Virus record (IMG/VR): IMGVR_UViG_3300032435_000019
Source of the DNA: a virus
Strand: one strand, 5' to 3'
DNA length: 43,703 nucleotides
A program made the translations under genes and the position numbers. Below, piece by piece: positions 21,234 through 37,487 of this stretch. The number at the start of each line of letters is the position of its first letter. The first letter of the stretch is position 1. A model generated the notes under the pieces. The model was not told where the DNA came from, ran no database searches, and saw nothing but the letters and a program-made list of their open reading frames with translations.

Positions 21234-21541
21234 ACGATATCGAGGCTGTCTTGAAGAACCTTCCTGGCTTCGTCCCTGGTGCCGTCCGGTGATGGGCCCT
21301 GGTTCTTATATATCTGGAAATCGTCGGCGTCTAACGCTATCCAGCCGCCTCCCTGGATTTTGTGCTCCTCGAAGGTGCCGGATACTTTGTGGCATGGCTG
21401 CCCTGATCCTGGGTAGTTGTTTGCCCAGCCGTGGTCGATGAATGCTATGCCGTCCGGCAGGTCGAAAACGTGCGCGGCGTAGTAGTCACCGGCCCCTATC
21501 TGGATAGACTTTCCCTGGGCGCTGTATTGTCCTGGTGTCAT
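21218..21541 (-). CDS. Hypothetical protein (107 aa)
   Basis: ORF with an ATGA overlap to the MuF gene stop. Confidence 0.65.
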   Translation of the reverse strand: MTPGQYSAQGKSIQIGAGDYYAAHVFDLPDGIAFIDHGWANNYPGSGQPCHKVSGTFEEHKIQGGGWIALDADDFQIYKNQGPSPDGTRDEARKVLQDSLDIVLPAD

Positions 21542-24500: not shown

Positions 24501-25509
24501 CCGCTTTCCCCTGGGCCTTGGCGAGCGCTTCGGTCGGGTCGATGCCTGGATTCTTTGCGATTATCTTTTTGAGCTCGGGCGCGAGGTATGGCTCCTTGCT
24601 GATTAGCGCGTCGTCTATGGCCTGCTGTGCCTGGGCCTTTACGGTGCTGAGTTTCTGAACCTCTAGGTCCTTCGCTATATCGGCCTTGTAGGCTGCTTGC
24701 ATCACTGCCTGTTTGCCCTGGGCTGCTTTGACGGCCTTGCGCTGCCGCTCCAGGAGGCTCTTGGCTTTGTCGTCGGCCTGGACTAGCAGATTTTTCATCC
24801 TGGCGAGGCCTGGGTTGTGGTCCCAGCCTGGGTCGGTGCCGATGGGTACTTTGTGGAGCGTTCCGTCCTTCGGGTTGGTCCAGTCCTTCGTTTTAATGTC
24901 CGGCTTTTTGATTGGCGTGAGCCCGAGGTCTTTTATGTCGTCCTCGTCTAGCTGTATCACGCCGCAGCGGCAATTCCAGCCGTTGGGAGGGAAGTGCGTT
25001 TTCCAAAAATCGGAATATACGGGGTGCACTTGATTGTCGAGCGCTGCGTGCTCCGGCCGGACCCTGAAGTCGTCCACGGCGTCGTATAGGAGAAACGGTG
25101 CGTCTTTGGCGTTTTTCGCTATCTTGTCCCAATGGCCTACGCTGTAGGCGCTTTGCAGGTTGCTTCTGAATATGGTCTCTAGGCGCGTGGCGCTGCCGAG
25201 CTGGGCCTTTACGACTAGGCCGGTGCTCGGGTCTATGACGTCCTTTTTGCCCCACCATCCGGCCTTCTGTAGCTCGGGGATTAGCTCCTTCTGAAAGTCG
25301 GCGAAGGTCTTACCTTCCTGGAGCGCTTTGCCGAGCCGCTCCTGGACCGTCGCTAGCAGGTCGGTGTCCATCATTTTGGCTACGGTGAACGCGGCGTCGT
25401 GCTCGTCGCCCAGCATTTCGTACCAGTTGAAGGTTGGGGATAGCCCTTTAGCCTGGATGAACTTGACGGCGTCGACCGGCTCTAGGTCGAACTGCGCGCT
25501 TACCTCCAT
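21538..25509 (-). CDS. Polyvalent head protein: MuF/SPP1 gp7-like minor head domain, Ala/Lys-rich linker, kinase-like domain and a C-terminal PARP-like ADP-ribosyltransferase domain (1323 aa)
   Basis: MuF domain: aa 1-235 with the NGWNCRCGV signature, directly after the portal gene. Kinase-like domain: aa 535-735 (GGQGGSNPGG, VKWYIK, RNEVL, DVVGQGFDNLL, VDTGG). ART domain: aa 1125-1285 (VIHRFTS, GGATYFFTR, STNETIVKD). Confidence 0.85.
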   Translation of the reverse strand: MEVSAQFDLEPVDAVKFIQAKGLSPTFNWYEMLGDEHDAAFTVAKMMDTDLLATVQERLGKALQEGKTFADFQKELIPELQKAGWWGKKDVIDPSTGLVVKAQLGSATRLETIFRSNLQSAYSVGHWDKIAKNAKDAPFLLYDAVDDFRVRPEHAALDNQVHPVYSDFWKTHFPPNGWNCRCGVIQLDEDDIKDLGLTPIKKPDIKTKDWTNPKDGTLHKVPIGTDPGWDHNPGLARMKNLLVQADDKAKSLLERQRKAVKAAQGKQAVMQAAYKADIAKDLEVQKLSTVKAQAQQAIDDALISKEPYLAPELKKIIAKNPGIDPTEALAKAQGKAAYYKGKALEANYKKAKIAGKEPSPASAAHVATLSDEAKGVLEYDIDVKSGQAAAQEAILAIATGKAPKQMKLQQTLFEKFSIDGTAAGFGTDYKGLVKAIQDEADAQMATGKISAVISGYKKKVLEGKIPSPQQQTIFNGLDDAAKAKVLADIDAKKAKANKATSTIEPSNEAANIDPAAPDAPVVQAKVVSAETEFNPDSMTKIGGQGGSNPGGLYQDTDTGVKWYIKEPKSIDNGRNEVLGAKIYEAAGIDAPQVQMVNFQGKDQIASKIIDGLESNSAALKAGAPGAAEGFMVDAWLANWDVVGQGFDNLLLKGGRAVRVDTGGTLRYRAQGTLKGTEWGDIVQEIESLRSPQYNSQSASVFGSMTQEQLIESARKVALFTDDKIDDLIKNYGPLDSRARKTLAATLKARREFILEAFPEARTRTPAAIVDTGERVTRIELENVNNSRINGYAVPTDKDSIEDQSVLVWHKTDANKNEITAAYFKVKGEAAERMLAQTTTAPANYNDVHEKIKKAATSIRHRIDNNETSLGSAISKLQIAANSYDEMIAGLKAEVAAGTRAQKSVTEIQKKIEPYIKQIKDSIAASAPVWDKNLTELYEEFNIGAAKLKAPEAGTIRWLEKENHTYNLNQLDKSYHRETSSRAVVQTKVFEAEIDGVKIRYFPDIPEVKAALRGRVDIEVPGNGLPASSKIFETIEQLGIDSTRASAASQEMLYLQQLGYIHRLDKKADFIAAIKAGDTAKAKALISKASGVDIDNVHYRPEGEHQAFEHGRRTRYRPELLGHPEWEGFEKNHRVIHRFTSNGSVLNNIKILVNGGGQMAPTADKIRRGVSIDGMSPGPDLNSGGATYFFTRIKTAEQAKVGSIVWKAKVAARSDAISYDGDKYGRTFDYVPNAQESSGPDFVQDYVQTNRQTKVQDLMEIARSTNETIVKDTLSIFDDLDYINAANNRERIEIIKFLKNEGYSTWPDGRSVTEVVRVNGELVR

Positions 25510-25522
25510 GAAGTTGACGATC

Positions 25523-27037
25523 TTAATTTTTGCGTTCTCCGCGGAGCATTCCGAGGAGCCTGCCCATTACGGTGGCCCGCTGTACGGTGTCGACTATCTC
25601 CTGGGGCGCGGTCTCCTCCATCATGTCGGCGATGTGCTTTTTGAATGTTTCGAAGTCCTGGTTCTCCTCTAGGTATCCGAGGAGCTGCTCGACCCGCTTG
25701 CCGTAAAGCTCTTTGTATTTGGTGGCGAGCCCTGCCGCGGCGTCTGCTAGTAGTTGCTGGTCGTTCCGGTGCCCTGCCCTGGCTGCCAGGAGGCTGCTTA
25801 TCTCGGCGAACTCCGCGGGCATAGGTCCTTGCCCTCCGGTCATTAGTGCCGGCGGGACAACGGCTTCCTTGCGCTTTTCCCAGCCCATGCCGTAGGTGTC
25901 CTCGATGTATTCGAGGGTCGGGTCGTAGCCTAGTGCGTAGATTTTGGCGTCGCGCTCGGCGCGATGATTGAGGTCCTCCGGCGGCGCTGTGTCCCGTACT
26001 ATCGAGGGCACGCCTGCGCCTGGGAAGTTCCACTCGGTTAGCCACTTGCCGGCGGTCCTCTTGAAGCTGTCGGCTATTAGGTCGCCGTCTGCGTCGGTTA
26101 GGTCGTTGGCGACGCCCTGGTGCACCTCGGCCTGGGATCGGCTGCTGCCGCTGTCCGTGGTCATGGTCTGCGATAGGATTACTTTCGATATTGCGCCGTC
26201 CATCTTTCCGGCTAGCTGGGCGTAGTCGGCGGTTCCGGATCGGGCGGCCTCGATTAGCTCTATGACCATGCTGTCGGGTATTACGACGCCGCTGTCCTGC
26301 TGAATAGATTGGAGGGCCGACTTGGCTTTGCGTATCTGTACCGGGTCGTTCATTTGGCCGTCGGGTATTCTGATGGCGGTGGTTGGCATCCCGAATTTCT
26401 CAAGGAATACGAGCCAGAACTTTATGTCGTTGCGCTTAAAAAATACCGGCCAATAAAGCGAGTGCGCGAGGCCCTGGCCGTAGGGATTGTCGTCGTGGCT
26501 TGCGCCGGCGGCGTAGGTCCAGAACTTGTTTTCCGGCATGACGAGGCCCTGCGAGTGCTTTAGGTCGTCCATTAGCATTAGCTGGTTGTCGACGTTCCAC
26601 TTGAAGCGGGAGCGGTCGCGGACCTTTATCGCGTCGAGGCCGACTTTGTTGTCCTCGGTCATGCCCCACATGAATTCCGCTACGCTGAATCCGTAGAATA
26701 CGCCGTATAGCATCTTGTCGGTTATGTCGTCCCAGCCAACTTTCTCTAGCTGCTGCCGGAGGAATTCCGCGGCCGCTTTGTCTGTTGCCGATTCGCTTTC
26801 CGAATCAATTTTCCATGTGGAACTTGTTAGCGCGCTGCGGCGCTGCTGAAAGCATGACTTGACCTGATCGTCGCGTAGGAGCTCGTCGTATACCTTGAAG
26901 TCGGGCCCGCGGCTTTTGAGCACGCTGTCCGGATTCTGGATTAGCATGTGGGTGTAGGCGTAGCTCATGGCGAAGCCGTGATCGTCGTGCGCCATTTCCT
27001 GCTGCAGCGGTTTTGCTGGTTTCTTTTTGGTAGCCAT
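25523..27037 (-). CDS. Portal protein (Mu gp29 / DUF935-like)
   Basis: 504 aa, between TerL and MuF. The N-terminal pattern ...NPDSVLKSRGPDFKVYDELLRDDQVKSCFQQRRSAL is typical of DUF935 portals. Confidence 0.9.
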   Translation of the reverse strand: MATKKKPAKPLQQEMAHDDHGFAMSYAYTHMLIQNPDSVLKSRGPDFKVYDELLRDDQVKSCFQQRRSALTSSTWKIDSESESATDKAAAEFLRQQLEKVGWDDITDKMLYGVFYGFSVAEFMWGMTEDNKVGLDAIKVRDRSRFKWNVDNQLMLMDDLKHSQGLVMPENKFWTYAAGASHDDNPYGQGLAHSLYWPVFFKRNDIKFWLVFLEKFGMPTTAIRIPDGQMNDPVQIRKAKSALQSIQQDSGVVIPDSMVIELIEAARSGTADYAQLAGKMDGAISKVILSQTMTTDSGSSRSQAEVHQGVANDLTDADGDLIADSFKRTAGKWLTEWNFPGAGVPSIVRDTAPPEDLNHRAERDAKIYALGYDPTLEYIEDTYGMGWEKRKEAVVPPALMTGGQGPMPAEFAEISSLLAARAGHRNDQQLLADAAAGLATKYKELYGKRVEQLLGYLEENQDFETFKKHIADMMEETAPQEIVDTVQRATVMGRLLGMLRGERKN

Positions 27038-28653
27038 TACTCGTACCCTCCGAAGTCGTTGTTACTGCGCACGCCCAGGTCTAGGTCGTCCGTTGCTGAA
27101 TGCCTGCTCCTGCCTGTGTCGGAGAAGCCTGCCCTGGTCGTTCCGCTGCTGTGGCTGTCTACTGCCATTTTCGAACTGTGAGCCCATTTCAGGAATTGGC
27201 TGAATGCGTCCACTTGATCGTCGTTGGAAACCAGCGGATAGCCGAATAGCTCGCTTTCGAAGTCGACCAGCCACTCTGCCCACTCGGGCAAATATACGAG
27301 CTTGGCCTCTACTATCGAGGAGACTGCTACTAGCCGCTCGGTCTTGTTGAGCGATTTCGGGTCTATTGCAATGGCCGGCGGCGTGTACCATTCCCCCTCC
27401 TGTATTTTGACGCCTTCGCGTGCTTCCTGGATTAGCGACTGCCCGCTTGCCTTGTCCTCTATGAGAACGGCTATCGGGTTCCACTTCATGCCCAAACTGT
27501 ACATGGAACGCCTGACGTCTGGATATAGCAGGCGCTTCCTGAATACGTCTAGCAAATAGTAGCCCTGCCGCGTTTCGCCCCAGGTTAGGCAGACGCTCGG
27601 GTCGTTGATTTCCTTGTCTTTGTACGCGGTGTCCCAGGATTGAACTATTCGTAAAAATTCGGCCGGCGGTGTGCCATAACGCTGAATCCATGATCGCTGT
27701 ATGAGCGATCCTTCCGCTGGCTTCGGTCGTTGCTGGTATAGGGCGGCCCAATTCCTGCTGCCCCTGTTGCGCTTTTCACGCTGCCAATGCGCCGGCGTGA
27801 ACCAGTCGGTCCATAGATATTCGCCTGCCTCACGCCCGAGCGGGTCGTCGTCCCTGGTGCACTCGGCCTCTAGGCATAGGACGTACCAGGGCTCGCCGGT
27901 GCGGCTTTCGATCCAGCCGCTCTGCCCATCCCACTCCTCCGGCAATATTCGGCCGCTTAGATCGTCCTCGTGCCAGCGGGTCTGGACGATAACGATTGCG
28001 CCTTCCGGTTTTAGTCGGGTGGTGAGGTCGTCCTGGTAGGCGTCCCACGTTTTGTCCCGTATGACCTGCGAGTCGGCCTGCTCCCTTCCCTGGACGGGGT
28101 CGTCTACGATGATTAGCTTGGCCCTGTTGCCGGTTAGGCCGGATAGTATGCCGCCGCACATAAACGTGGCGTCGTTGGTTAGGCTCCAGTCGTTGGCTGC
28201 CCTGTTGCCGGAGCGGAGCTCGGTCTTGTAGAGGTTTTTGAACTCAGGCGAGCTGGTTAGCTGCCGGCCCTTCCGGCCGAACTTGTCCGCTAGCTGGCTG
28301 CCGTAGCTGGTTAGAATGACCGGCTCGTTTGGGTGGTTTGCCATGTAGAACGGCGGGAAAGTTACGCTGACGTAGGTGCTTTTGGCGCTCCCTGGTGGCA
28401 TGAATACCATTAGGCGCTTTATGGTTCCGTCGTTTACTTCCTGGAGCTTGCTGTTGAGTAGGGTGTGGTGCTCCGCGGGCGTTACTCTGTCCGGATAGAA
28501 CTCCTCGCAGTCCTCGTCGTCGTTAAGCGGCGCGCCTGGGATTTTGACGTATCGGCAAAAGGTGTCGAGGTGGCTCGCGGCCTGCTTTCTGTATAGCGCC
28601 TCCTTTGCCTTTACTATCTGGACAAGCGAATCAGTGCGTTGTTGGGCCGTCAT
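27037..28653 (-). CDS. terL: Terminase large subunit
   Basis: Walker A-like motif MVFMPPGSAKST, ATPase motif LIIVDDP, a nuclease-half acidic motif, a size of 538 aa and a position upstream of the portal. Confidence 0.9.
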   Translation of the reverse strand: MTAQQRTDSLVQIVKAKEALYRKQAASHLDTFCRYVKIPGAPLNDDEDCEEFYPDRVTPAEHHTLLNSKLQEVNDGTIKRLMVFMPPGSAKSTYVSVTFPPFYMANHPNEPVILTSYGSQLADKFGRKGRQLTSSPEFKNLYKTELRSGNRAANDWSLTNDATFMCGGILSGLTGNRAKLIIVDDPVQGREQADSQVIRDKTWDAYQDDLTTRLKPEGAIVIVQTRWHEDDLSGRILPEEWDGQSGWIESRTGEPWYVLCLEAECTRDDDPLGREAGEYLWTDWFTPAHWQREKRNRGSRNWAALYQQRPKPAEGSLIQRSWIQRYGTPPAEFLRIVQSWDTAYKDKEINDPSVCLTWGETRQGYYLLDVFRKRLLYPDVRRSMYSLGMKWNPIAVLIEDKASGQSLIQEAREGVKIQEGEWYTPPAIAIDPKSLNKTERLVAVSSIVEAKLVYLPEWAEWLVDFESELFGYPLVSNDDQVDAFSQFLKWAHSSKMAVDSHSSGTTRAGFSDTGRSRHSATDDLDLGVRSNNDFGGYE

Positions 28654-29110
28654 GGCGTCCTATCGTTTTGGCCTCTAGTTCCTTGATCCGATTCTCTAGC
28701 TCCTCGACGGTCATGTTGTCGTAATCGTCCTCGGGCCTGGGTAGGTCGCGGCCCTTGCTGTCGGTGTTTGCGATCTTGTCCGGCGCTTTGAATCCTCCGA
28801 TTGCGGCCTCCTGGCGTGCTAGCTTTTCCCATCGGTCGATATGCTCTAGCGCGCCGCCTTTCGCCTTCGTCCATATCGCCTGCATGAGGATGTTTATTCT
28901 CATCAATTGGCGGGTTCGTAGGTTGTCGATGGTCTGCTGTGTCCGTAGTTCGTACTCGCTGAACGCCTCCTGAACGAGCTGATGCGCTCGGGTCTTGCTG
29001 ACGCCTATCTGCTCGCCTATCTGTTTCAATGAAAGGCCCGCCAGCATTAGGCTCACGGCCATTTCTCGCTTTTGCGCCATTGTGAATTTCTGCTTCATGG
29101 TTTGCGCCAT
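28631..29110 (-). CDS. Terminase small subunit candidate (HTH protein, 159 aa)
   Basis: The N-terminal HTH is LSLKQIGEQIGVSKTRAHQLVQEA. The gene lies immediately upstream of TerL and overlaps it by 23 nt. Confidence 0.6.
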   Translation of the reverse strand: MAQTMKQKFTMAQKREMAVSLMLAGLSLKQIGEQIGVSKTRAHQLVQEAFSEYELRTQQTIDNLRTRQLMRINILMQAIWTKAKGGALEHIDRWEKLARQEAAIGGFKAPDKIANTDSKGRDLPRPEDDYDNMTVEELENRIKELEAKTIGRHDGPTTH

Positions 29111-29120
29111 CGTTCAGTCT

Positions 29121-31436
29121 CTATAGGTTAAGTTCTGAATCCATCGCCGCTAGCTGCAGCGCCTCTAGGTCTACGGTTTTCACTTCGCCGATGGTCTCGG
29201 TGGCTAGCTTCGGGTCTCCTTTACAAAATACCATGACGTTGTCGTATGCCTGAAATACTGTGCGGTGCACTTTGAAGTGGTCTGCGACCGCTTTGCTGAG
29301 TCCCTTTATGTCGCCCAGGCTGGGCTCGCCTTTTGCGAATACCAGCGCGTTCTGGTGCCCTTTCGCTAGCTTCCGGCTGCTGCTGAACATACCGCCGGCG
29401 CGCATGGCGTTGCTTCCTATGTTGGTAAGCAGCACCGCCTCGTTGTAGTAGTGAAGGCCGGCCGCCTGGAAGGCCGCAATGGTATCCTGGACGAAACCCC
29501 TGTAACGCCCTTTGGGGTCTCGTACTTCGCCGACTACGAATACCGCGAATCTGTTGTCCTTTAGCATTTTGCAGCTTTCGCCGATTATGTGGGTGTAGGC
29601 CGCTATAAATTCGTGATATTCGAGGGTCGATAGGTCCTTCGGGTCGTCGCTGTAGACTTCCAGGTCGGCGTATGGAGGGCAACTAAAAACCATATCGTAT
29701 TCGCCTGGGGCGTGTTTTCGGACTTCCCTGGAGTCGCCTTCGATCCATCGCGGCTCTCCCTGGGCCTGTCGCATTATATCGAATGTGCCGACGTCGCCTG
29801 CTACGTTCCAGAATAATGCGCCTTCGCTGGCGTGCTCCTTGATGAATCTCCAGGCTTTGGCGTCGTAGTTGTTGCATGACTCGAAAGGCGGCGGCTGTTT
29901 TGCTGGGTCCTCGAACTTTTCCGGAGCCTCGTATAGCTTAGCCCTTCCGACCTGGGGGTCTTTGCCTATGGCTACCGCGTGGAATTCAGCGTCAGGCCAA
30001 GCCTGCTGTAGCGCCCTGGTTAGGACGCCGCTTCCTGCTACGGTCCAGACTTCGGTCGGTGTTTCTCCGGTCTCTAGCGCGACGGCCGCTATGGCGTCGA
30101 TGAAGTCCTGGTTATCTAGGCCGAATTCGATGTAGTGCGCGCCGGTCTCCTCGGCGAAGTCTCGGGCGGCCTTTTGGGTGGCGATTAGGTATCTCGCGTC
30201 GACTTCGTGGACTACTGCTCCGGCTCGCGCTGCGGCTTCGGTCCTGGCGTGCGGCTTTTTGCGTCGGCCTGCGACGAATATATGCGCTTGCTTCCCTGTT
30301 GCCCTGGCTGCGGCCGCTAGCGCTATTTGCGCGAAACCATAGGCCGGTGTGGCGTACACGAAGGTGGTCTCGGGAGAGGCGGCGAGCACTCGCTCTAGCG
30401 CCCTTCGTTTGGTGCCGCCGAATACATCGTCGTCGCGGAGTACTCGGATGCCGTCGTGCTCCTGGATTCTGGTTGGTGGTAGGTCTGCCGCCGGCTTCCC
30501 TGGTGTTTGGGCTCCGAGTATTTTGAAGGCCTGTTGTCGGTTAGCCTGTATCTGCTCGCCGCGTAGGTCGATGCCGGTGTAGTTGTAGCCGAGGAATCCT
30601 GCGACCAATCCGCGGACGCTGCCGCCGGCGAACGGGTCTAGGATCGCGCCGCCTGGAGGGCAAAACCATGAGTAGCTTATCTCGGTTAGCACCGGGTCGA
30701 ATATGCTTGTTCCGGTTAGCGTTATCTCCTCGGGGAATTCCTCGACGAACTCCTGCCAGGTTAGCTTGCGCCCGCGCTGGGCTTCTACCTTGTTTTTGAA
30801 TTCGTAAACGCCTGGAGGCTGGCTGCTGACGGCGTAGGTTAGGCCGCGCTCTGTTTTGTCGCCCTCGTTGCCGCGGCCTAGTTCTGACTGGATGCCTAGT
30901 TGTAGCCATAGGTTCTTGCGGTCCTTCCAGTAGCCCTGCTTGGCGTCTAGCACGCTGAATGGCGGGACGAGGAAGCGCTGCTGTAGTCCTTGGCGCGCTT
31001 CCTCCTGCTGCCCGCCTCCGAAGTCCGGACCGTCGTCGGATAGTAGGCTTTGGAGAAATGCGTTCGCGGCCATATCGCCGACGCTGTGTATGCCTTCGAT
31101 TAGGTCGTCTAGTAGTCCCTGGTCCTGGGTGGCGAGTGCTGATATTGGGTCTATTGCTGCTAGCGCGATCCGCTCCTCGTTCTCGGATAGCTCGACGTAT
31201 TTTACCGGCACGCGCTCGCTCCGGCTCATGGCTAACTGAACGCGGAGGTGGCCGTCGATGATGTGGCCGGTGGTGGTGTTGACTATGACGTCCTGAATCC
31301 AGCCGATTTCATTTAGCACGCCGGCTAGCGCATCTTGCTGGTGCTTTGGGTGGTAGCGGAAGTTGTGCGGGTTGGCTAGTAGCTGCTCGGGGTCCTCGGT
31401 GCCGCTTCCGGTGATTCTGTTTTTCCAGTCGGTCAT
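29121..31436 (-). CDS. ParB-like domain / DNA amino-methyltransferase fusion, carrying an inserted PLP-enzyme-like domain (771 aa)
   Basis: ParB/Srx-like domain at aa 15-100. MTase motif I is LDPFAGGSVRG (aa 266-276) and motif IV is FSCPPYADLE (aa 584-593). The segment aa 322-548 resembles ACC deaminase / D-Cys desulfhydrase (IRVLRDDDVFGGTKRRALERVL, TVAGSGVLTRAL, ALFWNVAG). Confidence 0.85.
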   Translation of the reverse strand: MTDWKNRITGSGTEDPEQLLANPHNFRYHPKHQQDALAGVLNEIGWIQDVIVNTTTGHIIDGHLRVQLAMSRSERVPVKYVELSENEERIALAAIDPISALATQDQGLLDDLIEGIHSVGDMAANAFLQSLLSDDGPDFGGGQQEEARQGLQQRFLVPPFSVLDAKQGYWKDRKNLWLQLGIQSELGRGNEGDKTERGLTYAVSSQPPGVYEFKNKVEAQRGRKLTWQEFVEEFPEEITLTGTSIFDPVLTEISYSWFCPPGGAILDPFAGGSVRGLVAGFLGYNYTGIDLRGEQIQANRQQAFKILGAQTPGKPAADLPPTRIQEHDGIRVLRDDDVFGGTKRRALERVLAASPETTFVYATPAYGFAQIALAAAARATGKQAHIFVAGRRKKPHARTEAAARAGAVVHEVDARYLIATQKAARDFAEETGAHYIEFGLDNQDFIDAIAAVALETGETPTEVWTVAGSGVLTRALQQAWPDAEFHAVAIGKDPQVGRAKLYEAPEKFEDPAKQPPPFESCNNYDAKAWRFIKEHASEGALFWNVAGDVGTFDIMRQAQGEPRWIEGDSREVRKHAPGEYDMVFSCPPYADLEVYSDDPKDLSTLEYHEFIAAYTHIIGESCKMLKDNRFAVFVVGEVRDPKGRYRGFVQDTIAAFQAAGLHYYNEAVLLTNIGSNAMRAGGMFSSSRKLAKGHQNALVFAKGEPSLGDIKGLSKAVADHFKVHRTVFQAYDNVMVFCKGDPKLATETIGEVKTVDLEALQLAAMDSELNL
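29793..30473 (-). other. Inserted fold-type II PLP-dependent-enzyme-like domain within the methyltransferase (aa 322-548)
   Basis: GGTK(343)RRALE matches the GGNKxRKLE Schiff-base lysine motif. AGSG matches the phosphate-binding Gly loop. This is a motif match by eye only. Confidence 0.6.
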
Positions 31437-31494: not shown

Positions 31495-31767
31495 TTACTT
31501 GGCGGGTGCGGGCTCGGACTGGATCGCTTTGATCGTTCGGACGAGCTCCGCGTTCCTGGTGAAGCAAATACCGGCGCGCCGGTTATTTTCAATCATTGCG
31601 TCGAGTACGTCTAGGTCGTTGTCGGTCGGTGGTTCAATTAGCGGCGGCGTCGGCTCTAGCAGCGGCTCCGGCACTGTTAGCTTCACGCACGCTGGCGGTG
31701 ACTGCGCGCAACCAATCAGGCCCGAGGTCGCAATTAGAAACGCTAGGGCGCTTGATATTCTGGACAT
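31495..31767 (-). CDS. o-spanin (outer-membrane lipoprotein, Rz1-like)
   Basis: Signal peptide with lipobox LIGC (MSRISSALAFLIATSGLIGCAQ), a Pro-rich mature part, and a start inside the i-spanin gene in another frame. Confidence 0.8.
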   Translation of the reverse strand: MSRISSALAFLIATSGLIGCAQSPPACVKLTVPEPLLEPTPPLIEPPTDNDLDVLDAMIENNRRAGICFTRNAELVRTIKAIQSEPAPAK

Positions 31768-32008
31768 TGCGGTTTAGCTCCTCGTTGGTCTGCTGTACGT
31801 CGCGCATGATGCCGATGGTCTTTTTCTGGAAAGACTCGAGTGTTTCTATGGCTTCTGCCATTTGTCCGGCCTGGGCGATGTTGATTTTCTGGAGTTGGTT
31901 TGTTGTTCCCTGGTGGTATCCGTAGCCGTAGAGGCCCAGGCCTGTTGCGGCTATGGCGGCGATCCACCATTTTGCTCCGGAGAAGAATGTTAGCACGCCG
32001 GCGATCAT
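31634..32008 (-). CDS. i-spanin (Rz-like)
   Basis: An N-terminal transmembrane segment (MIAGVLTFFSGAKWWIAAIAATGLGLYGY), a coiled-coil periplasmic part, and an overlap with the o-spanin gene. Confidence 0.8.
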   Translation of the reverse strand: MIAGVLTFFSGAKWWIAAIAATGLGLYGYGYHQGTTNQLQKINIAQAGQMAEAIETLESFQKKTIGIMRDVQQTNEELNRNVQNIKRPSVSNCDLGPDWLRAVTASVREANSAGAAARADAAAN

Positions 32009-32337
32009 TGTGGTTTTTCGTCGTCCTCGGGGTCCCAGCTTTCGTCGGTGCCCTTCTTTGGCTCCTGGCTGAATAGCTCGGCTTCGGCCTGGGCTTTTTT
32101 GACGTCGGTGAAGTACTCGGCTGCGTTGGCGAAACTGTAGGCGACAATGTTGGCCTGGGTGATGGCGCTATAGTCGGCTCCGTCTAGCCAGCCAAATACC
32201 AGCGCTATGGTGCTGAATACCTGGGTGCCTGCTGATAGCTGCCATTTGCGCGACCGGAACTTGTCGTCATGTGGTGGCACTGGTTTAACCCCAAAGGTGG
32301 CGCTCGGTGAGTAGCGTGTAGGAGAATTTGGGCCCAT
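32005..32337 (-). CDS. Membrane protein, holin candidate (start uncertain)
   Basis: A hydrophobic segment (GTQVFSTIALVFGWL), a charged C-terminus and a position between the endolysin and the spanins. An in-frame GTG just after the endolysin stop is an alternative start. Confidence 0.45.
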   Translation of the reverse strand: MGPNSPTRYSPSATFGVKPVPPHDDKFRSRKWQLSAGTQVFSTIALVFGWLDGADYSAITQANIVAYSFANAAEYFTDVKKAQAEAELFSQEPKKGTDESWDPEDDEKPQ

Positions 32338-32890
32338 GTTCCTTTGCCGCTCGGTTTACGATAGCCATTAGAAGGCTGTAGTCGGCGCGTCGGGATATGA
32401 CTTGGCAGCCGGCGCTCCACTTTCCGATCTCGTTGCTCTCGGCGCTGGCTTCGTGGAGGTTTATTCCGAAGTAGCCGGTCTCCTCCTGGGTGAAGTCGAG
32501 CACTTCGTCTTTGTTGTTGTCCCTGTAGACCTTGATTGGGCCGCGCTGGACTAGCGCCTCGTATTTCCCGCGGTGCTTGCCTATGCTCCAAACGCTGCGG
32601 TATTGCCCTGGGACCACTATCGCGGTGCCTTTTACGTTCATGGGGTTCTGCCGCCAGTAGGTGCCTGGGTCGGTGGTGGCGGCAAAGACCATCAATTGCG
32701 GGTGGTCGAACTGCCGGAAGGCGAGCACGATCCAGTCGTTGAATAGGTTGCTCCGATTATCGTCGGTGCGAACGCCGATGATATTTAGATTGAAATCTCC
32801 ATTATCGAAGAATGCATGGCCGAGCTGGGCCTGCACCTTCCGGAGGTGCTCGTAGGTTAGTCCGCTCATTCGCTGGGTTTGTTTATCCAT
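32285..32890 (-). CDS. Putative endolysin / cell-wall hydrolase with a YkuD-like His...SxGC motif (201 aa)
   Basis: GINLHEASAESNEIGKWSAGCQV resembles the L,D-transpeptidase-fold catalytic His/Cys signature. It sits in the lysis cassette. The alternative start at 32869 makes an ATGA overlap with the upstream stop. Confidence 0.5.
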   Translation of the reverse strand: MDKQTQRMSGLTYEHLRKVQAQLGHAFFDNGDFNLNIIGVRTDDNRSNLFNDWIVLAFRQFDHPQLMVFAATTDPGTYWRQNPMNVKGTAIVVPGQYRSVWSIGKHRGKYEALVQRGPIKVYRDNNKDEVLDFTQEETGYFGINLHEASAESNEIGKWSAGCQVISRRADYSLLMAIVNRAAKEHGPKFSYTLLTERHLWG

Positions 32891-33441
32891 GATCGAGATC
32901 CTAGTTTGTCCACGTCGCTTAGATAGCTAGATAGCTTTTCGACTGCCACTTCGTTTCCGGCTGCTTTTATTTCCGCTGCGTTGACTCGCTGCCGTAGTTC
33001 TATGAGGTATTGATCTGTGAGCCTTGCGTTGTAGGTGTGCTCGTGCTGCCATGCTTCGAACTTGCCCAGGGTGACGGCTCGCTCGCCGAGTATTTTGTTC
33101 TGAGTCTGGTTTAGCTCGGTGATGTTGAGGACCGCTTTTTCTATAGGGTCCGATTTTAGCTCTATGAACGTTAGCATGATGCCTAGTATGGCGAAGAAGC
33201 CGCCTAGTGTGGCCCATACCTGTATTTGCGGTCTAGGCGCGCCGTAGAGGTCTATCAGCTTGTCGATGCCTGCGCTTAGTCGCTTTAGCTCTGTTCCTTG
33301 ACCGACGACCGTTGCCTGGAGCGATGCCTGCCCCTGGACAAGTCCTGATACTTCGCGATCTAGGTGGCCGACGCGGCCTTGTAGGTTGGTTAATTGCTCT
33401 GGGTTCAAACGGATACTCCCTTGTTTGTTCTGTTCCGTCAC
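32866..33441 (-). CDS. Bitopic membrane protein with coiled-coil flanks (191 aa), a possible holin or lysis regulator
   Basis: A single central transmembrane segment (VWATLGGFFAILGIMLTFI). The gene lies immediately upstream of the endolysin. Confidence 0.55.
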   Translation of the reverse strand: MTEQNKQGSIRLNPEQLTNLQGRVGHLDREVSGLVQGQASLQATVVGQGTELKRLSAGIDKLIDLYGAPRPQIQVWATLGGFFAILGIMLTFIELKSDPIEKAVLNITELNQTQNKILGERAVTLGKFEAWQHEHTYNARLTDQYLIELRQRVNAAEIKAAGNEVAVEKLSSYLSDVDKLGSRSWINKPSE

Positions 33442-33878
33442 TGTGGCTCCTGGAGGCTTTGCACTTTTGCCCTGCGTTTAACTCCGCGGTGCCCAAAGGC
33501 GGCAGTCGCTTGTAGTCGGCGGGCGTGGCGGCATCTGCGTCCGTAGACTTCCCTGGTGTCGGCTCGGGTAATGATCTGTACATAACGGGCGGTTATTCCG
33601 TAGCAAGCTGCGATATTGTCCTTTGATATTCCTGCTAGGACTAATCGGAGAATTTCCTCGTTTCTCATCTGGTTGGCGTACCCATTGCCGATCCAAATAC
33701 TTGAACCGCCGAACTCCTGGCATAGCGATTGCATTGCTTTGAAGCCTACGACTTCCGCTATTAGGTGCTCCGGCGTGGCTTCGGTCGGGATGTATGTTTG
33801 GGAGGGTCCGACGGCGCGCTGTAGCTCGGTGAGCTGCGTCCTGCCGAGGATGCTTATTAGGTCGTAAGTTGTTGCCAT
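33438..33878 (-). CDS. Mor-family transcriptional activator (Mu Mor/C-like)
   Basis: SLCQEFGGSSIWIGNGYANQMRNEEILRLVLAGISKDNIAACYGITARYVQIITR parallels Mu Mor ...HLGGGQVYIPRG...RDLRIWNDFNGRNVSELTTRYGVTFNTVYKAIRR, recalled from memory. Confidence 0.7.
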   Translation of the reverse strand: MATTYDLISILGRTQLTELQRAVGPSQTYIPTEATPEHLIAEVVGFKAMQSLCQEFGGSSIWIGNGYANQMRNEEILRLVLAGISKDNIAACYGITARYVQIITRADTREVYGRRCRHARRLQATAAFGHRGVKRRAKVQSLQEPQ

Positions 33879-33879
33879 G

Positions 33880-34368
33880 CTAGCCGTACATCGCTATGCA
33901 GATGGCGTCTGCGCGCCCGTGGTGTTTCTTGAGGTGTAGCTCGGCGTTCGGGTGTAGTCGCTTGGCTAGTAACCGGCTCTGGTCTTTGGGCGTTCCTATG
34001 AGGCCGGCCTTGCGCTTCCAGACGATTGGCGTGGTCTCCTGGAGGGAGAATCCTGCTATGTGGACCGCGGCTTTCACCGCTCCGTATCCTTCGCCGAAAT
34101 TGAAGGCGCTTTGCGATCCCATTTTTGCGCGCTTGCCGTCTTTGCCTGGGGCGGCGTTGGGCATGGCGTTTACGCGCTCGATTTTGGCTATAGCGCAGAG
34201 TGCGGTGTGCTGCTTTAGGTAGTTGAAAACCGCGGTCGCATTGATGTGGCGCTTGCCGTCCACCCCCTGGATGGTTGGCATATCAATTAGGCCGACTAGC
34301 TTGCCGTCTTTGATTACTGCGATGGCTCCGGTGACGCCTGGGTCGATACCGATTACGGTGCTAGCCAT
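33880..34368 (-). CDS. RuvC-like Holliday junction resolvase
   Basis: VIGIDPGVTGAIAV at the N-terminus (catalytic Asp), ...GRADAICIA near the C-terminus, and a size of 162 aa. Confidence 0.8.
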   Translation of the reverse strand: MASTVIGIDPGVTGAIAVIKDGKLVGLIDMPTIQGVDGKRHINATAVFNYLKQHTALCAIAKIERVNAMPNAAPGKDGKRAKMGSQSAFNFGEGYGAVKAAVHIAGFSLQETTPIVWKRKAGLIGTPKDQSRLLAKRLHPNAELHLKKHHGRADAICIAMYG

Positions 34369-34429
34369 GCCCGTTCCCTTGCTATTGGTCTCGGGCGTTG
34401 ATACTACATTGGCCGGAGCGCTCTCACAA

Positions 34430-35008
34430 TCACCCTAGTAGCGCCCTTAATGCCTGGATATGGGGTAGCCCTTCCTCGGCCCTGATCTTTGCTGCCGCCT
34501 TCGCTTCTGCGGTCCTGATGGCTAGCTGCTCCTCGGTCTCGATCTGCGGTAGTCCGAGGCGCTCCCTGCGCTGTCGGTCGCGTTTCTTTTGCCGGTGGTG
34601 CACTGCTATGCCTACGAACTGCGGGAGGTTGGGCATTTTTGGCTCGCTGTCGCGGCAATGGTCGAGGGCTGCACCTACGTCGCGGTCGGTGAATCCCTGG
34701 CTTTGGAACGCCGCGCACCACTCAAGTTGTGCTATTCGTAGCGTTCGGTCGTCGGGAAAGTTGCTGCTCCAGAGGTGGCCGTAGATGGATTTCATCCGTA
34801 TGAATACGCCGGTCATTAGCTTCTGCGCTTCGGGACTTATGTCTCCTATCCTGGGGCCTCCTTCGTCCTGGTGGCTGCGCTGCAGTCTCCTGGCTAGTGC
34901 TTCCGGACCGCCTTGTAGTAGGTCGGCCGCGGCTCTATAGGGCCCCTTGCTGTCTGAGCATGGCTGTGAGGTCGTCTGCAATGACTTGTGATCCGCTTCG
35001 TTTCCCAT
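34430..35008 (-). CDS. Lambda P-like replication protein (helicase-loader candidate)
   Basis: GVFIRMKSIYGHLWSSNFPDDRTLRIAQLEWCAAFQSQGFTDRDVGAALDHCRDSEPKMPNLPQFV parallels lambda P GVFSQLLATFPASLANRDQNEVNEIRRQWVLAFRENGITTMEQVNAGMRVARRQNRPFLPSPGQFV, recalled from memory. A good RBS (GGGGAAAGGAAG) precedes the ATG at 35008. Confidence 0.6.
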   Translation of the reverse strand: MGNEADHKSLQTTSQPCSDSKGPYRAAADLLQGGPEALARRLQRSHQDEGGPRIGDISPEAQKLMTGVFIRMKSIYGHLWSSNFPDDRTLRIAQLEWCAAFQSQGFTDRDVGAALDHCRDSEPKMPNLPQFVGIAVHHRQKKRDRQRRERLGLPQIETEEQLAIRTAEAKAAAKIRAEEGLPHIQALRALLG

Positions 35009-35711
35009 AACTTCCTTTCCCCTGTTGTTGGTTGTGTAGCGCGTGGAGCCTGTTTAGGAATGTCTTATTCCAGCCGGCTTCCTTTCTCCGCTTTTCCTGC
35101 CCTATCCAGTAGATTCTGAATTCGTTAATGATGTGGTCTATGTCGTCGAATTGGTAGCCTATATCGATGGCTTGCTGGAGCGTTTTTTCGCTTGGATACC
35201 ACTCATTTTTTAATCGTCGTGGGCCCGCCTTTTCCTCGGCGGGACCAACTTTGTCATGTGTATTAGTTAACTCTGTCCTGTGTAAGTGTCCGGTTTTCCC
35301 GACCGTCCGGCAATCCGGACTTTCGGTACTGGCTATTTCACCGACTGTCCGGTTTTCCGGACTTTCGGTAGTCCTGGTTGGTTTAGTAGCGTTCGGTGTC
35401 GTCCGTGGTGCCGCTGATACGCATAGCTGCGTGCCGGTAATTTGCCCTTCCTCGTTCCGCTCGTGCTCCCTCCAGGCTAGGCCGATGGCTGCTAGCTCTT
35501 TGAGCGCTTTGGCGTACCCCTCTTTTCCTATTTTGAAGCGCCGCCGGATGTGGTCCCTGCGGATTATCCAGTTGGGTGGCCGGTCTAGTAGGTAGATGAG
35601 AATAGCGAGCGCCTGCGGGCTCTGTATTGCTTCGATGGTGCTGCTCGGGATAACGACGTAGGTTCCTCCGGCGTTCTTGAGCGTGGTTGGCGTGGTCTTT
35701 TCTATTGGCAT
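34935..35711 (-). CDS. Replication initiator (winged-helix N-terminal domain plus DnaT/O-C-terminal-like domain)
   Basis: The winged-helix segment is ALAILIYLLDRPPNWIIRRDHIRRRFKIGKEGYAKALKELAAIGL. The C-terminal part is WYPSEKTLQQAIDIGYQFDDIDHIINEFRIYWIGQEKRRKEAGWNKTF. I prefer the ATG at 35711 (RBS GGGGAAAG) to the track start at 35747, which has no spacer after AGGG. Confidence 0.65.
   Translation of the reverse strand: MPIEKTTPTTLKNAGGTYVVIPSSTIEAIQSPQALAILIYLLDRPPNWIIRRDHIRRRFKIGKEGYAKALKELAAIGLAWREHERNEEGQITGTQLCVSAAPRTTPNATKPTRTTESPENRTVGEIASTESPDCRTVGKTGHLHRTELTNTHDKVGPAEEKAGPRRLKNEWYPSEKTLQQAIDIGYQFDDIDHIINEFRIYWIGQEKRRKEAGWNKTFLNRLHALHNQQQGKGSYGKRSGSQVIADDLTAMLRQQGAL
35287..35370. 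repeat. Candidate origin iterons inside the initiator gene
   Basis: Two 30-bp units, ccgacCgtccggCAATccggactttcggta at 35299..35328 and ccgacTgtccggTTTTccggactttcggta at 35341..35370, repeat with a 42-bp period. Each unit contains GTCCGG-N4-CCGGAC. A third half-site, tgtccggttttcc, is at 35287. An AT-richer stretch lies at 35250..35286. Confidence 0.55.
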
Positions 35712-35747
35712 GGCTTTCCCCTGTTCGTTTTTATTGCCCGAAACCAT

Positions 35748-35775
35748 CCCTATGTACTTTGCGATTTACATAGGG
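35748..35775. promoter_or_regulatory. Perfect inverted repeat CCCTATGTA-N10-TACATAGGG in the leader of the replication operon
   Basis: Read directly from the sequence. It lies between the predicted leftward -10 and the initiator start codon. Confidence 0.5.
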
Positions 35776-35826
35776 AGCTTTTTCGGACCCCGACTATACC
35801 GGCGTATTTATACTTTCGCTATATGT

Positions 35827-35855
35827 TTGACCGGTATTCCCTTGCGCGATATGAT
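35827..35855 (+). promoter_or_regulatory. Sigma70-type promoter for the rightward operon (TTGACC-17 nt-TATGAT)
   Basis: -35 at 35827..35832 and -10 at 35850..35855, 68 nt upstream of the ATG at 35923. A CCGGTAT box overlaps the -35 (TTGACCGGTAT). Confidence 0.6.
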
Positions 35856-35922
35856 AGCGCCCTGGGTCGGTGTTTTGGTCCATTGCCACGAGAATATTTT
35901 CTGAATAATTTGGAGTCCGTTT

Positions 35923-36573
35923 ATGTCAGCCGGTTTACGAATACGATCCTCGCGGAAATCCCAGGGGCTTACTCAAAAGGATCTGGCTGCCCTGGCTGGC
36001 TGTTCCCAGCAAACTATTGTCGACATTGAGGGCCGGCCCGATCCTTCCTCGCGTTACCTGCCGGCTATCGTTTCCGCGCTCGGTGAGGAAATGTCCTATA
36101 TCCAGAACGGTATCGGATCGCCGGCCGGTGGTCCTTCGGGCGATCTGCTGCCATGCCTGACGCCTTTCGAGGTTGCTGTTGGCGTGCTGGATGGTCTTGA
36201 TGCTGCGCCGCAGAATGATCCTCGCTACTCGTCACCGGTGCCGGTCTCCCGCCTTGCTTTTACGATGCTGGTCGATACTACGATGTGCAGTATGGGGTTC
36301 GATGTATCCGTGGGCGATGTGGTGTTTGCTGATCCTGCTGCTGCTGTGGTCTCGGGCTCCCTGGTTGTTTGCGTTGCCCCTGGGTGGAATCGCGCCGAGC
36401 TTCGGGTGGTGAGCGAGATACGGGGTCAAACGTATTTGTCGCTGGACAACTTCCAGGATCGGTTCGGGTGCACGATTTACCGCGCTGCTAGTGATTACTT
36501 GTCCTCTGATCGTGAGGATGCTTTATTGGTCGCTGGGGTCGTGGTATTTATGGGCCGCTCGGCGCTTTTATAG
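35923..36573 (+). CDS. CI/LexA-like regulator (XRE HTH plus an S24-like C-terminal domain, probably not self-cleaving)
   Basis: The HTH is LTQKDLAALAGCSQQTIVDIE. The C-terminal beta domain has a CSMG...VGDVVFADP...GSLVV pattern like S24 peptidases, but there is no Lys anywhere in that domain. Confidence 0.7.
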   Translation: MSAGLRIRSSRKSQGLTQKDLAALAGCSQQTIVDIEGRPDPSSRYLPAIVSALGEEMSYIQNGIGSPAGGPSGDLLPCLTPFEVAVGVLDGLDAAPQNDPRYSSPVPVSRLAFTMLVDTTMCSMGFDVSVGDVVFADPAAAVVSGSLVVCVAPGWNRAELRVVSEIRGQTYLSLDNFQDRFGCTIYRAASDYLSSDREDALLVAGVVVFMGRSALL

Positions 36574-36649
36574 CCTTTCATCCGGTATGCGCGGCAATGC
36601 TACACGACGCTCATTTACCTTCTATTTTGCCTTCCAATGCCCCACGTTA

Positions 36650-36679
36650 TTGTTTATAGTCACTCCAAGCCGGTATTCT
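36650..36679 (+). promoter_or_regulatory. Possible promoter before the recombination genes (TTGTTT-18 nt-TATTCT)
   Basis: A weak consensus match. The -10 overlaps a CCGGTAT box, and a second box lies 10 bp downstream. Confidence 0.3.
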
Positions 36680-36704
36680 CCGGTATATAAAAAGGAGTGA
36701 CCTT

Positions 36705-37487
36705 ATGGTTGCCAATACTAAAACGCTTGCGGTCGTTGGCTCGCCTCTGGCGGCTATGTCCGAGCGCTTGGGGATCGAGGCCAGGGAGCTGGAGGCCGTT
36801 ATTAAGGCGACGGTTATGCCGGCGAAAGATGCCCACAAAAACCCGCTGGTTGTTACGAATGAGCTGTTCGTTGCCTTCCTGGCTGTTGCTAACAACTATC
36901 AACTGGACCCGCTCAAGAAGGAAATCTATGCCTTTCCTGCGAAGGGTGGCGGTATCCAAGCGGTGGTGTCTATCGACGGCTGGATGTCGATTATCAATGC
37001 CCACCCCCAATTTGACGGCATGGAGCTGGTCGAGAACGACGACTCGGCCGGTACCTTCGTTTCGGTCACTTGTACTATCTACCGCAAGGATCGTGAGCAT
37101 CCCACGGTCGTTACCGAGTGGCTGTCCGAGTGCAAGCAATCTACGGACCCCTGGCGTGATCGCCCTCGTCGTATGCTGCGCCACAAGACCGCTATTCAAT
37201 GCTCCCGCTATGCTTTCGGCCTGGGCGGTATTGTTGAGCATGACGAGGCCATCGAAGCGCTGGGCGGCGAGCGCGAGGTAGCTCCTGCTGTCGCTAGTGA
37301 GCCGGAGGAGGTGTTCTATCCGGTCGCTCTGTTCGATTCCAATTTGCCTAAATGGCGCGTTTTGATCGAGTCCGGCAAGCGAACGCCTGCCGAGGTTATC
37401 GCTACGGTGCAGTCGAAGGGATCGCTTACTGAAAAGCAAAAGGTGGCTATATCCAACTGCGCGCCTGTTGAAGGAGAAATTGTATGA
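36705..37487 (+). CDS. Bet/RecT-family single-strand annealing protein
   Basis: FLAVANNYQLDPLKKEIYAFPAKGGGIQAVVSIDGWMSIINAHPQFDGME is the characteristic Bet/RecT core. An RBS (AAGGAG) lies upstream. Confidence 0.85.
   Translation: MVANTKTLAVVGSPLAAMSERLGIEARELEAVIKATVMPAKDAHKNPLVVTNELFVAFLAVANNYQLDPLKKEIYAFPAKGGGIQAVVSIDGWMSIINAHPQFDGMELVENDDSAGTFVSVTCTIYRKDREHPTVVTEWLSECKQSTDPWRDRPRRMLRHKTAIQCSRYAFGLGGIVEHDEAIEALGGEREVAPAVASEPEEVFYPVALFDSNLPKWRVLIESGKRTPAEVIATVQSKGSLTEKQKVAISNCAPVEGEIV

Follow-up and report, generated by a model that had tools for sequence, protein, structure and literature searches.

Why would a phage place a pyridoxal 5'-phosphate (PLP) enzyme inside the fold of a DNA methyltransferase (MTase)? 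The question is raised by a gene on the minus strand (29121..31436) of the IMG/VR virus record IMGVR_UViG_3300032435_000019, whose whole stretch of 43,703 nucleotides is here called the window. The list of open reading frames (ORFs) and its translation give a protein of 771 amino acids (aa). An initial annotation, drawn from the sequence alone, saw a ParB-linked MTase split by a domain resembling 1-aminocyclopropane-1-carboxylate (ACC) deaminase, and proposed chemistry on the amino-acid arm of S-adenosylmethionine (SAM): a non-methyl base modification or SAM cleavage. Computational analysis now leads to a more specific proposal. The protein may be a two-module hypermodification enzyme that uses the aminocarboxypropyl arm of SAM, yielding an aminopropyl-type base; judged from sequence comparisons, this reading has a little less than an even chance of being right.

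A complete PLP domain with a conserved active site

The insert spans aa 322-548 (227 aa; 29793..30473, minus strand). Within the whole protein, the PALP profile (PF00291) matches aa 342-490 with an expectation value (E) of 3.8e-8 and 33.5 bits, against a cut-off of 35 bits; the score rises to 36.5 bits in a scan limited to aa 300-580, a region for which the initial annotation expected just such a hit. An AlphaFold2 model of the whole protein, built on a 78-sequence alignment, has a predicted local distance difference test (pLDDT) score of 84.7 overall and 93-98 over the insert, which scores 91.5 when modelled by itself. The isolated insert superimposes on the ACC-deaminase homologue 1j0a with Z 21.5 and a root-mean-square deviation of 2.5 (232 of 235 residues aligned), on D-cysteine desulfhydrase with Z 20.4, on ACC deaminase 1rqx with Z 19.9, and on the small Campylobacter protein CJ0600 with Z about 20-20.4. 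In all, 33 fold-type II chains match at Z of at least 14, and the first unrelated fold appears at Z 7.3. Foldseek searches with the full model give the same picture: the top 50 matches are all fold-type II PLP enzymes. The insert thus is an intact, complete minimal fold-type II PLP domain, and the match is far beyond chance. Its placement in the lineage of ACC deaminase and D-cysteine desulfhydrase, first suggested by motifs, holds.

Conservation of the site was evaluated over 219 domain sequences, comprising representatives at no more than 50% identity plus the closest homologues. The predicted Schiff-base lysine, K343 (codon 30408..30410, minus strand), is conserved in 99% (216/219), as is G341. 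The glycine-rich loop G468-S469-G470 is conserved at 87%, 92%, and 97%, respectively; Y524 at 94%; D525 at 94%, with Glu in a further 5%; K527, W529, and W543 at 98-99%; and N544 at 97%. Through a related subfamily (B, below), K343 aligns to the Lys of the GGNK motif in D-cysteine desulfhydrase and ACC deaminase, and the glycine-rich loop aligns to the corresponding motifs. The initial annotation asked whether the lysine would prove conserved in homologues; it is.

All of the motif coordinates first assigned proved exact: LDPFAGGSVRG at 266-276, FSCPPYADLE at 584-593, IRVL..ERVL at 330-351, ATPA..IFV at 362-388, TVAGSGVLTRAL at 465-476, and GALFWNVAG at 539-547, with residue 343 a lysine and aa 322-548 corresponding to 29793..30473.

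A permuted methyltransferase

The MTase core is divided by the insert. Its amino-terminal half (aa 150-310; 30507..30989, minus strand), delimited by the Pfam match, the alignment to the structure 2zie, invariant columns, and the DSSP assignment of the model, contains a PPFSVLD..GR block specific to the family, followed by motifs X and I, the strand of motif II (YTGIDL), and a helix (aa 293-307). Its carboxyl-terminal half (aa 560-706; 29319..29759, minus strand) contains motif III (RWIEGDS), motif IV (FSCPPY, aa 584-589), and motifs V-VIII. N6_N4_Mtase (PF01555) matches with 30.9 bits against a cut-off of 26.7, and a DNA methyltransferase family in PHROGs matches at 3e-99. Residues 259-297 correspond to Pfam profile positions 179-217, and residues 562-645 align to 2zie residues 22-107 (E 9.8e-6) whereas residues 198-300 align to 2zie residues 166-274. 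These alignments show a circular permutation of the core with respect to PF01555: motifs X-I-II come before IV-VIII.

Among the 78 aligned sequences, motif I (D267-P-F-A-G-G272) is invariant, as are C586, P587, P588, and Y589 of motif IV. The protein departs here from the standard motif IV, (D/N/S)PP(Y/F/W): the PPY part is retained and Cys586 occupies the D/N/S position. The resulting (S/T)CPPY motif is found in all clades of the family, and Cys is dominant in each.

Ahead of the core lies a ParB/Srx-like amino-terminal domain (about aa 17-143; 31008..31388, minus strand) that includes DGHLR (aa 61-65). It is recognized by PHROGs (phrog_620, E 3.9e-11; phrog_15396, E 6.5e-11) and is modelled with pLDDT 82-96; the Pfam ParB_N family (PF02195) matches homologues but not the protein itself at E up to 1. 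Behind the core is a helical tail (aa 707-771; 29124..29318, minus strand) of low model confidence (pLDDT 40-65). From the model's DSSP assignment and the 2zie alignment, the order of elements is: ParB; PPFSVLD..GR; motifs X, I, and II; helix; PLP insert; motifs III-VIII; tail.

The insert occupies the loop that joins strand 3 to the helix following strand 2. Sister proteins of 510-525 aa lack it, yet are 69-76% identical to the 771-aa protein in all three flanking regions; in these, the motif II helix leads directly into motif III. The initial annotation, which put ordinary relatives at about 300 aa shorter, was thus roughly right (the difference is roughly 250 aa). It had also doubted that the insert is a target-recognition domain, and that possibility is ruled out by the completeness of the insert-less sisters together with the conserved PLP site.

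The loop accommodates other guests. In three homologues of 716-724 aa (P0095, P0099, and P0104), it holds not a PLP domain but a second MTase-like module with its own FSCPPYHDLE; the Pfam domains there are PF03602, PF07669, and PF13847. Separately, a fused homologue of 1129 aa (P0075) contains LAGLIDADG_3 (PF14528), presumably an intein, inside the MTase C-half, which extends over 479 residues as against 147 in the 771-aa protein.

Decarboxylases as nearest relatives

Which reaction would the PLP domain catalyze? An exhaustive search with the insert returned 1217 clusters at E up to 1e-3, mostly stand-alone proteins of 230-250 aa, and its nearest structural clusters in the ESM Atlas are 71-100% viral. 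Over aa 327-546 the protein matches phrog_7093 ('threonine dehydratase') at E 6.2e-30, covering profile positions 15-278 of 279. This is the family of Pseudomonas phage M6 gp52, its type member, which matches the profile at E 2e-159. Direct hhalign comparison of the insert family with gp52 gave a probability of 96.3 and E 1.8e-9 over 212 columns, aligning K343 to K36 of gp52 and revealing a common carboxyl-terminal signature, PFP.C..YD.KAW..FWN. Purified M6 gp52 and Salmonella phage ViI gp226 are yellow, PLP-type proteins that decarboxylate amino acids carried on thymidine in polymeric DNA, and 1j0a served as the template for a model of gp226 (Lee et al. 2021, PMC8989533). By profile comparison, then, the nearest characterised relatives of the insert are DNA-acting decarboxylases, not deaminases.

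The likeness to gp52 and gp226 extends to kind and company: same PHROG, small fold-type II protein, phage-encoded, and tied to DNA-modifying enzymes. The differences are also considerable. Identity to gp52 is 24% over the hhalign-aligned columns, and M6 is not among the tblastn matches to the insert. Partners of gp52 are an amino-acid:DNA transferase and a 5-hydroxymethyldeoxyuridine (5-hmdU) kinase, whereas the partner here is a SAM-dependent MTase-fold enzyme that, unlike those of gp52, encloses the PLP domain; a decarboxylase role for the latter is predicted.

Two subfamilies of PLP domain occupy the same MTase loop. The insert analysed here belongs to A; subfamily B is more ACC-deaminase-like, matching D-cysteine desulfhydrase and ACC deaminase at E about 1e-10 with GGK, QS, and Y-E-x-K motifs. 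The two subfamilies are related with an hhalign probability of 99.2 at 24-26% identity. MTases that carry B are 57-63% identical to the 771-aa protein, as close as many A carriers, so the PLP module has repeatedly been swapped, acquired, or lost at this single site. (A subfamily-B relative also resides in the classical aGPT-Pplase2/kinase cluster of Glutamicibacter phage Montesquieu.)

Might the domain simply retain the elimination chemistry of ACC deaminase and D-cysteine desulfhydrase, acting on a small amino acid, on SAM, or on S-adenosylhomocysteine, or else be a non-catalytic structural or DNA-binding module? The best structural matches (1j0a, 4d97, and 1rqx; Z 19.9-21.5) come from just that family, as do the subfamily B profile matches, and several features are shared with it: the lysine motif, a Ser/Thr-Pro after strand 2, the glycine-rich loop, and Y-(D/E/T)-x-K-A. 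However, NCBIfam scores fall far below the family cut-offs (TIGR01274, TIGR01275): for ACC deaminase proper (TIGR01274), the insert has no match and subfamily B scores 26.7 bits against 392. Moreover, at about 230 aa against about 338 aa for full-length ACC deaminase, the domain is about 100 residues shorter; its context is viral and DNA-directed; and both its nearest profile relatives and the partner that replaces it in a sister clade (below) point to decarboxylation rather than deamination or elimination. A non-catalytic role is made less likely by the almost complete conservation of the lysine and the phosphate loop. We consider this explanation quite improbable as a whole, and SAM cleavage or ACC-deaminase-type chemistry, as first envisaged, less likely than decarboxylation.

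A recurrent partnership

The initial annotation knew of no characterised member with this architecture. It is neither unique nor rare. The insert is present in about 90 of the best 120 homologues from a collection of 5.8 billion proteins, and the fused form occurs in the cultured phages Erythrobacter vB_EliS_R6L, Erythrobacter ZS04, Microcystis Mae-JY30, and Pseudanabaena Pam4. Widespread in viral metagenomes, it was previously overlooked: the genome paper for Erythrobacter phage R6L calls the fused protein (ORF1) a CcrM-like methylase. Full-text literature searches found no description of the fusion.

Coupling between the two modules was counted in 85 IMG/VR loci that carry the mini-PLP domain. 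It lies inside the MTase in 8 of these. In 51 others an MTase of the same family is encoded within 300 bp (34 upstream, 17 downstream), often with overlapping stop and start codons, and in a further 5 it lies within 1.3 kb; no MTase was detected in 21 of the 85, some of which are cut by contig ends. Gene orders include ParB|PLP|MT, MT|PLP, and PLP|MT. The adjoining MTases are 62% identical to the C-half of the 771-aa protein and carry FSCPPYADLEVYSD. In mycobacteriophages Vincenzo and AlanGrant, the split pair constitutes genes 1 and 2, adjoining terminase. The mini-PLP domain also occurs as a carboxyl-terminal fusion on MTases, including some of the SPPY type.

These arrangements bear on geometry. 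The initial annotation drew its chemistry from the position of the PLP site between the SAM pocket and motif IV; that argument loses its force where the same PLP protein is a separate gene upstream or downstream, or a carboxyl-terminal fusion. The idea of a composite SAM-PLP active site is set aside, given the coexistence of split, amino-terminal, carboxyl-terminal, and inserted arrangements.

Structure prediction for one split pair (the MTase of locus L002 with the PLP protein P0122, plus SAM and PLP) gave an interface score (ipSAE) of 0.36, compared with 0.00 for the best control. This mark is reached by 58 of 80 solved complexes and by 2 of 110 mismatches, with scores of 0.60 or less in 7 of those 80 solved complexes and in both mismatches. 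At least 46% of contacts recur between runs, and the partner is modelled with pLDDT of 86 or more. The predicted complex counts weakly for a two-module enzyme, and that weakness is counted against it as well.

Some mini-PLP proteins keep other company. One protein of 2261 aa (P0205) combines DEAD/Helicase_C, a PCIF1_WW-type MTase region with FTSPPF, and a mini-PLP domain at its extreme carboxyl terminus, resembling the polyvalent proteins of phages and conjugative elements. In others (P0165, P0170, P0171, P0244, P0139, L035:5552-5998, P0144, and P0177), the mini-PLP domain is fused to or adjoins YunG-like (PF24585) and DUF3102 (PF11300) domains, which are further candidate partners of the family. 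Searches of PHROGs, PDB sequences, and the ESM Atlas returned no function for YunG or DUF3102, and the paper on polyvalent proteins (PMC5512222) mentions neither of these nor PLP. Where no MTase is nearby, neighbours of mini-PLP genes are mostly unknown proteins.

A second, unrelated decarboxylase

A further partner also bears on the reaction. In Pseudomonas phage ZRG1 (L097:3092-4937) and Croceibacter phage P2559S (L098:4667-6308), an MTase of the same family is followed by an overlapping small gene that encodes AdoMet_dc (PF02675; 83.5 bits in ZRG1 and 70.3 bits in P2559S), a SAM decarboxylase. A scan of IMG/VR with these two AdoMet_dc proteins returned 80 loci. The ParB-(S/T)CPPY MTase lies immediately upstream in 34 of them, about 30 of the 35 closest relatives included, with gaps of -166 to +4 nucleotides (MTase and AdoMet_dc loci: L179-L213, L224, L248, and L254-L255). 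The pyruvoyl self-processing motif, ESH..HT[YF]PE, is kept in 33 of the 34 MTase-linked AdoMet_dc proteins. The remaining 46 loci hold speD genes of the cyanophage type. The MTase-AdoMet_dc pair is, then, a widespread phage module, one that full-text searches of the literature likewise do not turn up. For some of the phage 'speD' genes, ordinarily interpreted as auxiliary metabolic genes for polyamines, this pairing may mean a DNA-directed role.

PLP and AdoMet_dc partners never occur together in the sampled loci, and the window contains no AdoMet_dc ORF. A FastTree phylogeny of 166 MTase cores (a quick tree, midpoint-rooted, with insert columns and rows of unknown context left out) places the AdoMet_dc-linked MTases in one clade. 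All 113 PLP-linked MTases belong to the other major clade, where 31 that have no partner are scattered among them. Partner states require 20 changes on this tree; when labels are shuffled, the mean is 49 and the minimum 44. AdoMet_dc in the sister clade is a non-orthologous displacement of the PLP partner. Among MTase neighbours no third accessory type emerged; the sole recurrent family is a small-terminase-like helix-turn-helix (HTH) protein.

The AdoMet_dc pairing also invites a quite different explanation, polyamine synthesis for packaging. Spermidine synthase has an MTase fold, and the order of transferase followed by AdoMet_dc, with overlapping genes, mimics a speE-speD operon. The MTase-fold protein would then transfer aminopropyl groups to putrescine or some other small amine, with decarboxylated SAM (dcSAM) supplied by the decarboxylase, and the products would serve as counter-ions for DNA packaging, a role that would fit the gene's place beside the terminase genes. 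However, the transferase is a homologue of the PF01555 DNA amino-MTases that has the base-stacking motif PPY and is fused to a ParB domain for DNA binding; the PLP partner is akin to DNA-acting decarboxylases; and no relation to spermidine synthase is apparent, since PALP and N6_N4_Mtase are the only Pfam families to match the protein at E up to 1. Polyamine synthesis is therefore most improbable.

A transferase for the SAM side chain?

Two unrelated, mutually exclusive partners have SAM-type alpha-amino-acid decarboxylation in common, and for this reason a pathway is proposed in which the arm of SAM ends up on DNA minus its carboxylate. Domain identities, PLP-site conservation, and genomic coupling are observed; the substrate, the transferred group, the order of steps, and the target base are inferred. 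The ParB-linked MTase module, with its (S/T)CPPY motif IV, would use SAM or dcSAM to alkylate the exocyclic amino group of a flipped base, transferring the C4 arm of SAM instead of, or besides, methyl. The PLP module would be a decarboxylase that removes the alpha-carboxylate of the SAM-derived arm. The expected end product would be a base of aminopropyl type, for example N6-(3-aminopropyl)adenine or N4-(3-aminopropyl)cytosine. SAM appears to be the only evident source of an amino acid, because phmmer searches with M6 gp51, gp53, and gp54 and Montesquieu 39, 40, and 42 found no homologue of an amino-acid:DNA transferase, 5-hmdU kinase, or radical-SAM enzyme in the window or in the 85 mini-PLP loci.

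Two orders of events can be imagined. In the first, 3-amino-3-carboxypropyl (acp) would be transferred to DNA and then decarboxylated there, as M6 gp52 and ViI gp226 do with amino acids on thymidines; this fits the precedent of those enzymes, and relatives without a partner would stop at the acp stage. In the second, SAM would first be converted to dcSAM, and aminopropyl transfer of the spermidine-synthase type would follow; this fits AdoMet_dc and the SpeD/SpeE precedent. The late position of the gene, with lysis genes on one side and terminase genes on the other, would suit an enzyme that modifies progeny DNA.

In favour of such an enzyme are the close and recurrent coupling to a single MTase family and the sharing of one loop by two PLP subfamilies. 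Several points weigh against it. Members of PF01555 are methyltransferases by default, and apart from the Cys, motifs I and IV look like those of an amino-MTase. Judged by the topology of a Rossmann-type fold, the insertion loop would lie at the amino terminus of strand 3, across the fold from the loops that bind the cofactor; it would thus be distal to the SAM site, so that nothing hints at a shared active site. Either order of events needs an unprecedented step, because AdoMet_dc acts on free SAM and gp52 on DNA-bound amino acids. The main doubt comes from the many close relatives without any decarboxylase. In an MTase-centred sample, neither partner was present within at least 1 kb on each side in 40 of 80 loci. 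The closest sisters (P0013; P0014, from a prophage of Shewanella avicenniae; and P0017) share synteny with the window and have neither partner within 4-5 kb. Listeria phage B054, Enterococcus phage phiFL3A, Clostridium phage phiCTP1, HCTV-2, and others have the MTase, and four tblastn queries found neither partner in them. The tree requires about 19 changes from PLP to none. Because so many relatives lack a decarboxylase, the MTase core must be able to work alone, most simply as a methylase.

In an alternative explanation, the core is an ordinary methyltransferase, producing N6-methyladenine (m6A) or N4-methylcytosine (m4C), and the PLP domain (or AdoMet_dc in the sister clade) is an independent SAM-consuming module for anti-defence or metabolism. 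Conversion of SAM to dcSAM would starve SAM-dependent host restriction or BREX, and co-location or fusion would reflect only that both modules are anti-restriction. SAM destruction by phage enzymes is an established anti-restriction strategy, free SAM is the substrate of AdoMet_dc, the MTase does work without a partner in many phages, and functionally allied but biochemically independent domains are commonly fused in phage conflict proteins (PMC5512222). On the other hand, SAM depletion is needed at phage entry, whereas this gene is late and stands beside terminase; depletion by the same polypeptide would deprive the MTase of its own cofactor, which would be counterproductive; and characterised relatives of the PLP domain act on DNA-bound substrates. 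Internal-loop insertion on two occasions, with different PLP subfamilies, together with the near-obligate overlap of the split genes, argues for biochemical coupling. We therefore regard a methylase with an independent SAM-consuming module as unlikely, although less so than elimination chemistry or polyamine synthesis. If the MTase only methylates, its repeated coupling to two unrelated SAM-type decarboxylases still calls for explanation.

The SAM-arm hypermodification proposal thus preserves one part of the initial annotation, chemistry on the amino-acid arm of SAM leading to a non-methyl DNA modification, which gains from the kinship of the PLP domain with DNA-amino-acid decarboxylases and from the AdoMet_dc replacement. 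Extended beyond this one protein, the claim becomes slightly more doubtful: widespread phage enzymes would install a natural DNA base not known before, adenine or cytosine bearing an N-(3-aminopropyl) or N-(3-amino-3-carboxypropyl) group drawn from the C4 arm of SAM, by means of an (S/T)CPPY transferase and an interchangeable decarboxylase, either of PLP type (fused or split) or pyruvoyl AdoMet_dc. The parts are of known kinds (phage DNA-modification enzyme, PLP tailoring decarboxylase, AdoMet_dc); their combination and the chemistry it would imply are new, and literature searches found no aminopropyl or aminocarboxypropyl DNA base.

If true, this would represent a new chemical class of phage DNA hypermodification, SAM-arm alkylation followed by decarboxylation in one or two genes, and the first SAM-arm alkylation of DNA. 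It would provide a function for phage 'speD' genes behind an MTase-like transferase, and would reassign large numbers of proteins whose present annotation is 'DNA methylase', 'threonine dehydratase', 'ACC deaminase', or 'S-adenosylmethionine decarboxylase'. The DNA would bear a cationic primary-amine handle, usable for labelling or restriction evasion. Cultured phages exist for each form: fused, split PLP, AdoMet_dc, and no partner.

Comparison with other systems

The ParB-fused N6/N4 DNA methyltransferases (PF01555; structural relative TTHA0409, 2zie) share with this protein the ParB amino-terminal domain, an amino-MTase core with an FxGxG-type motif I and PPY, and a typical phage position beside terminase. 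They differ from it in three respects: the circular permutation, (S/T)CPPY with its invariant Cys, and the decarboxylase coupling. (Another 'ParB-methylase', cited in PMC5512222, is Bacillus cereus BCE_0392.)

The carboxymethylcytosine system of Synechococcus phage S-B43 follows the same logic, in which an accessory enzyme alters SAM and an MTase-fold enzyme modifies DNA. There, CmoA makes carboxy-SAM (Cx-SAM) and the phage MTase-fold enzyme CmoX transfers it to DNA, often with ParBc proteins encoded nearby (PMC12783734). CmoX differs in belonging to the C5-cytosine MTase class, in its accessory CmoA, which is neither a PLP nor a pyruvoyl enzyme, and in transferring carboxymethyl.

Precedents for use of the C4 arm of SAM come from outside DNA modification. 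In the SpeD/SpeE pathway, an MTase-fold enzyme transfers aminopropyl from dcSAM, and Tyw2, Tsr3, and TapT transfer acp directly to RNA nucleobases. The AdoMet_dc partner is a true PF02675 member. The transferase has no sequence relation to SpeE, Tyw2, or Tsr3, its proposed acceptor is DNA, and the predicted decarboxylase in the window is PLP-dependent.

Genome context

The gene is flanked downstream by a 159-aa small-terminase-like HTH protein (28631..29110, minus strand), which clusters with the gene found between MTase and large terminase in many loci, and then by PHROG-matched large terminase (27037..28653) and portal (25523..27037) genes. Upstream are an Rz-like spanin (31634..32008, minus strand) and an endolysin-like protein (32285..32890, minus strand), both also matched in PHROGs. 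Following the portal gene is an ORF of 1323 aa (21538..25509, minus strand); its amino-terminal 468 aa match a MuF-like 'minor head protein and DNA pilot' (phrog_220), and the remaining 850 or so could be part of an ejected multidomain protein.

The window resembles a near-complete temperate phage. The interval 33438..39342 encodes a Mor-like late activator, a RuvC-like resolvase, and P-like and replication-initiation proteins, along with a CI-like repressor (35923..36573, plus strand), RecT and RecE (36705..39037, plus strand), and an excisionase (39034..39342, plus strand). Its closest relatives are Shewanella and Alteromonas prophages or phages with the same order: Mor, lysis, MTase, small terminase, large terminase, portal, MuF. 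The window occurs in 7 metagenome runs of freshwater or lake origin, in each case as contigs; the runs come from 4 studies, and no RNA run is listed. A protein identical to the 771-aa product is encoded by a Joint Genome Institute (JGI) contig of 43,699 nucleotides. No match to the gene turned up among 50,697 phage records searched by megablast, and phmmer of the whole protein against PDB sequences found weak MTase matches only.

Other putative nucleic-acid modification genes lie near some family members: a PAPS-reductase-like gp7 about 1.4 kb from gp1 in R6L (L001), and an Nmad5-family protein (L097:8588-9001) about 3.6 kb downstream in ZRG1. Finally, in two sister phages (L259:3645-3953 and L006:4639-4953), the gene directly upstream of the MTase, which here lacks the insert, shows a weak or faint match to Acb2_Tad1_hairpin (PF24729), hinting at an anti-CBASS or anti-Thoeris sponge beside the modification gene.

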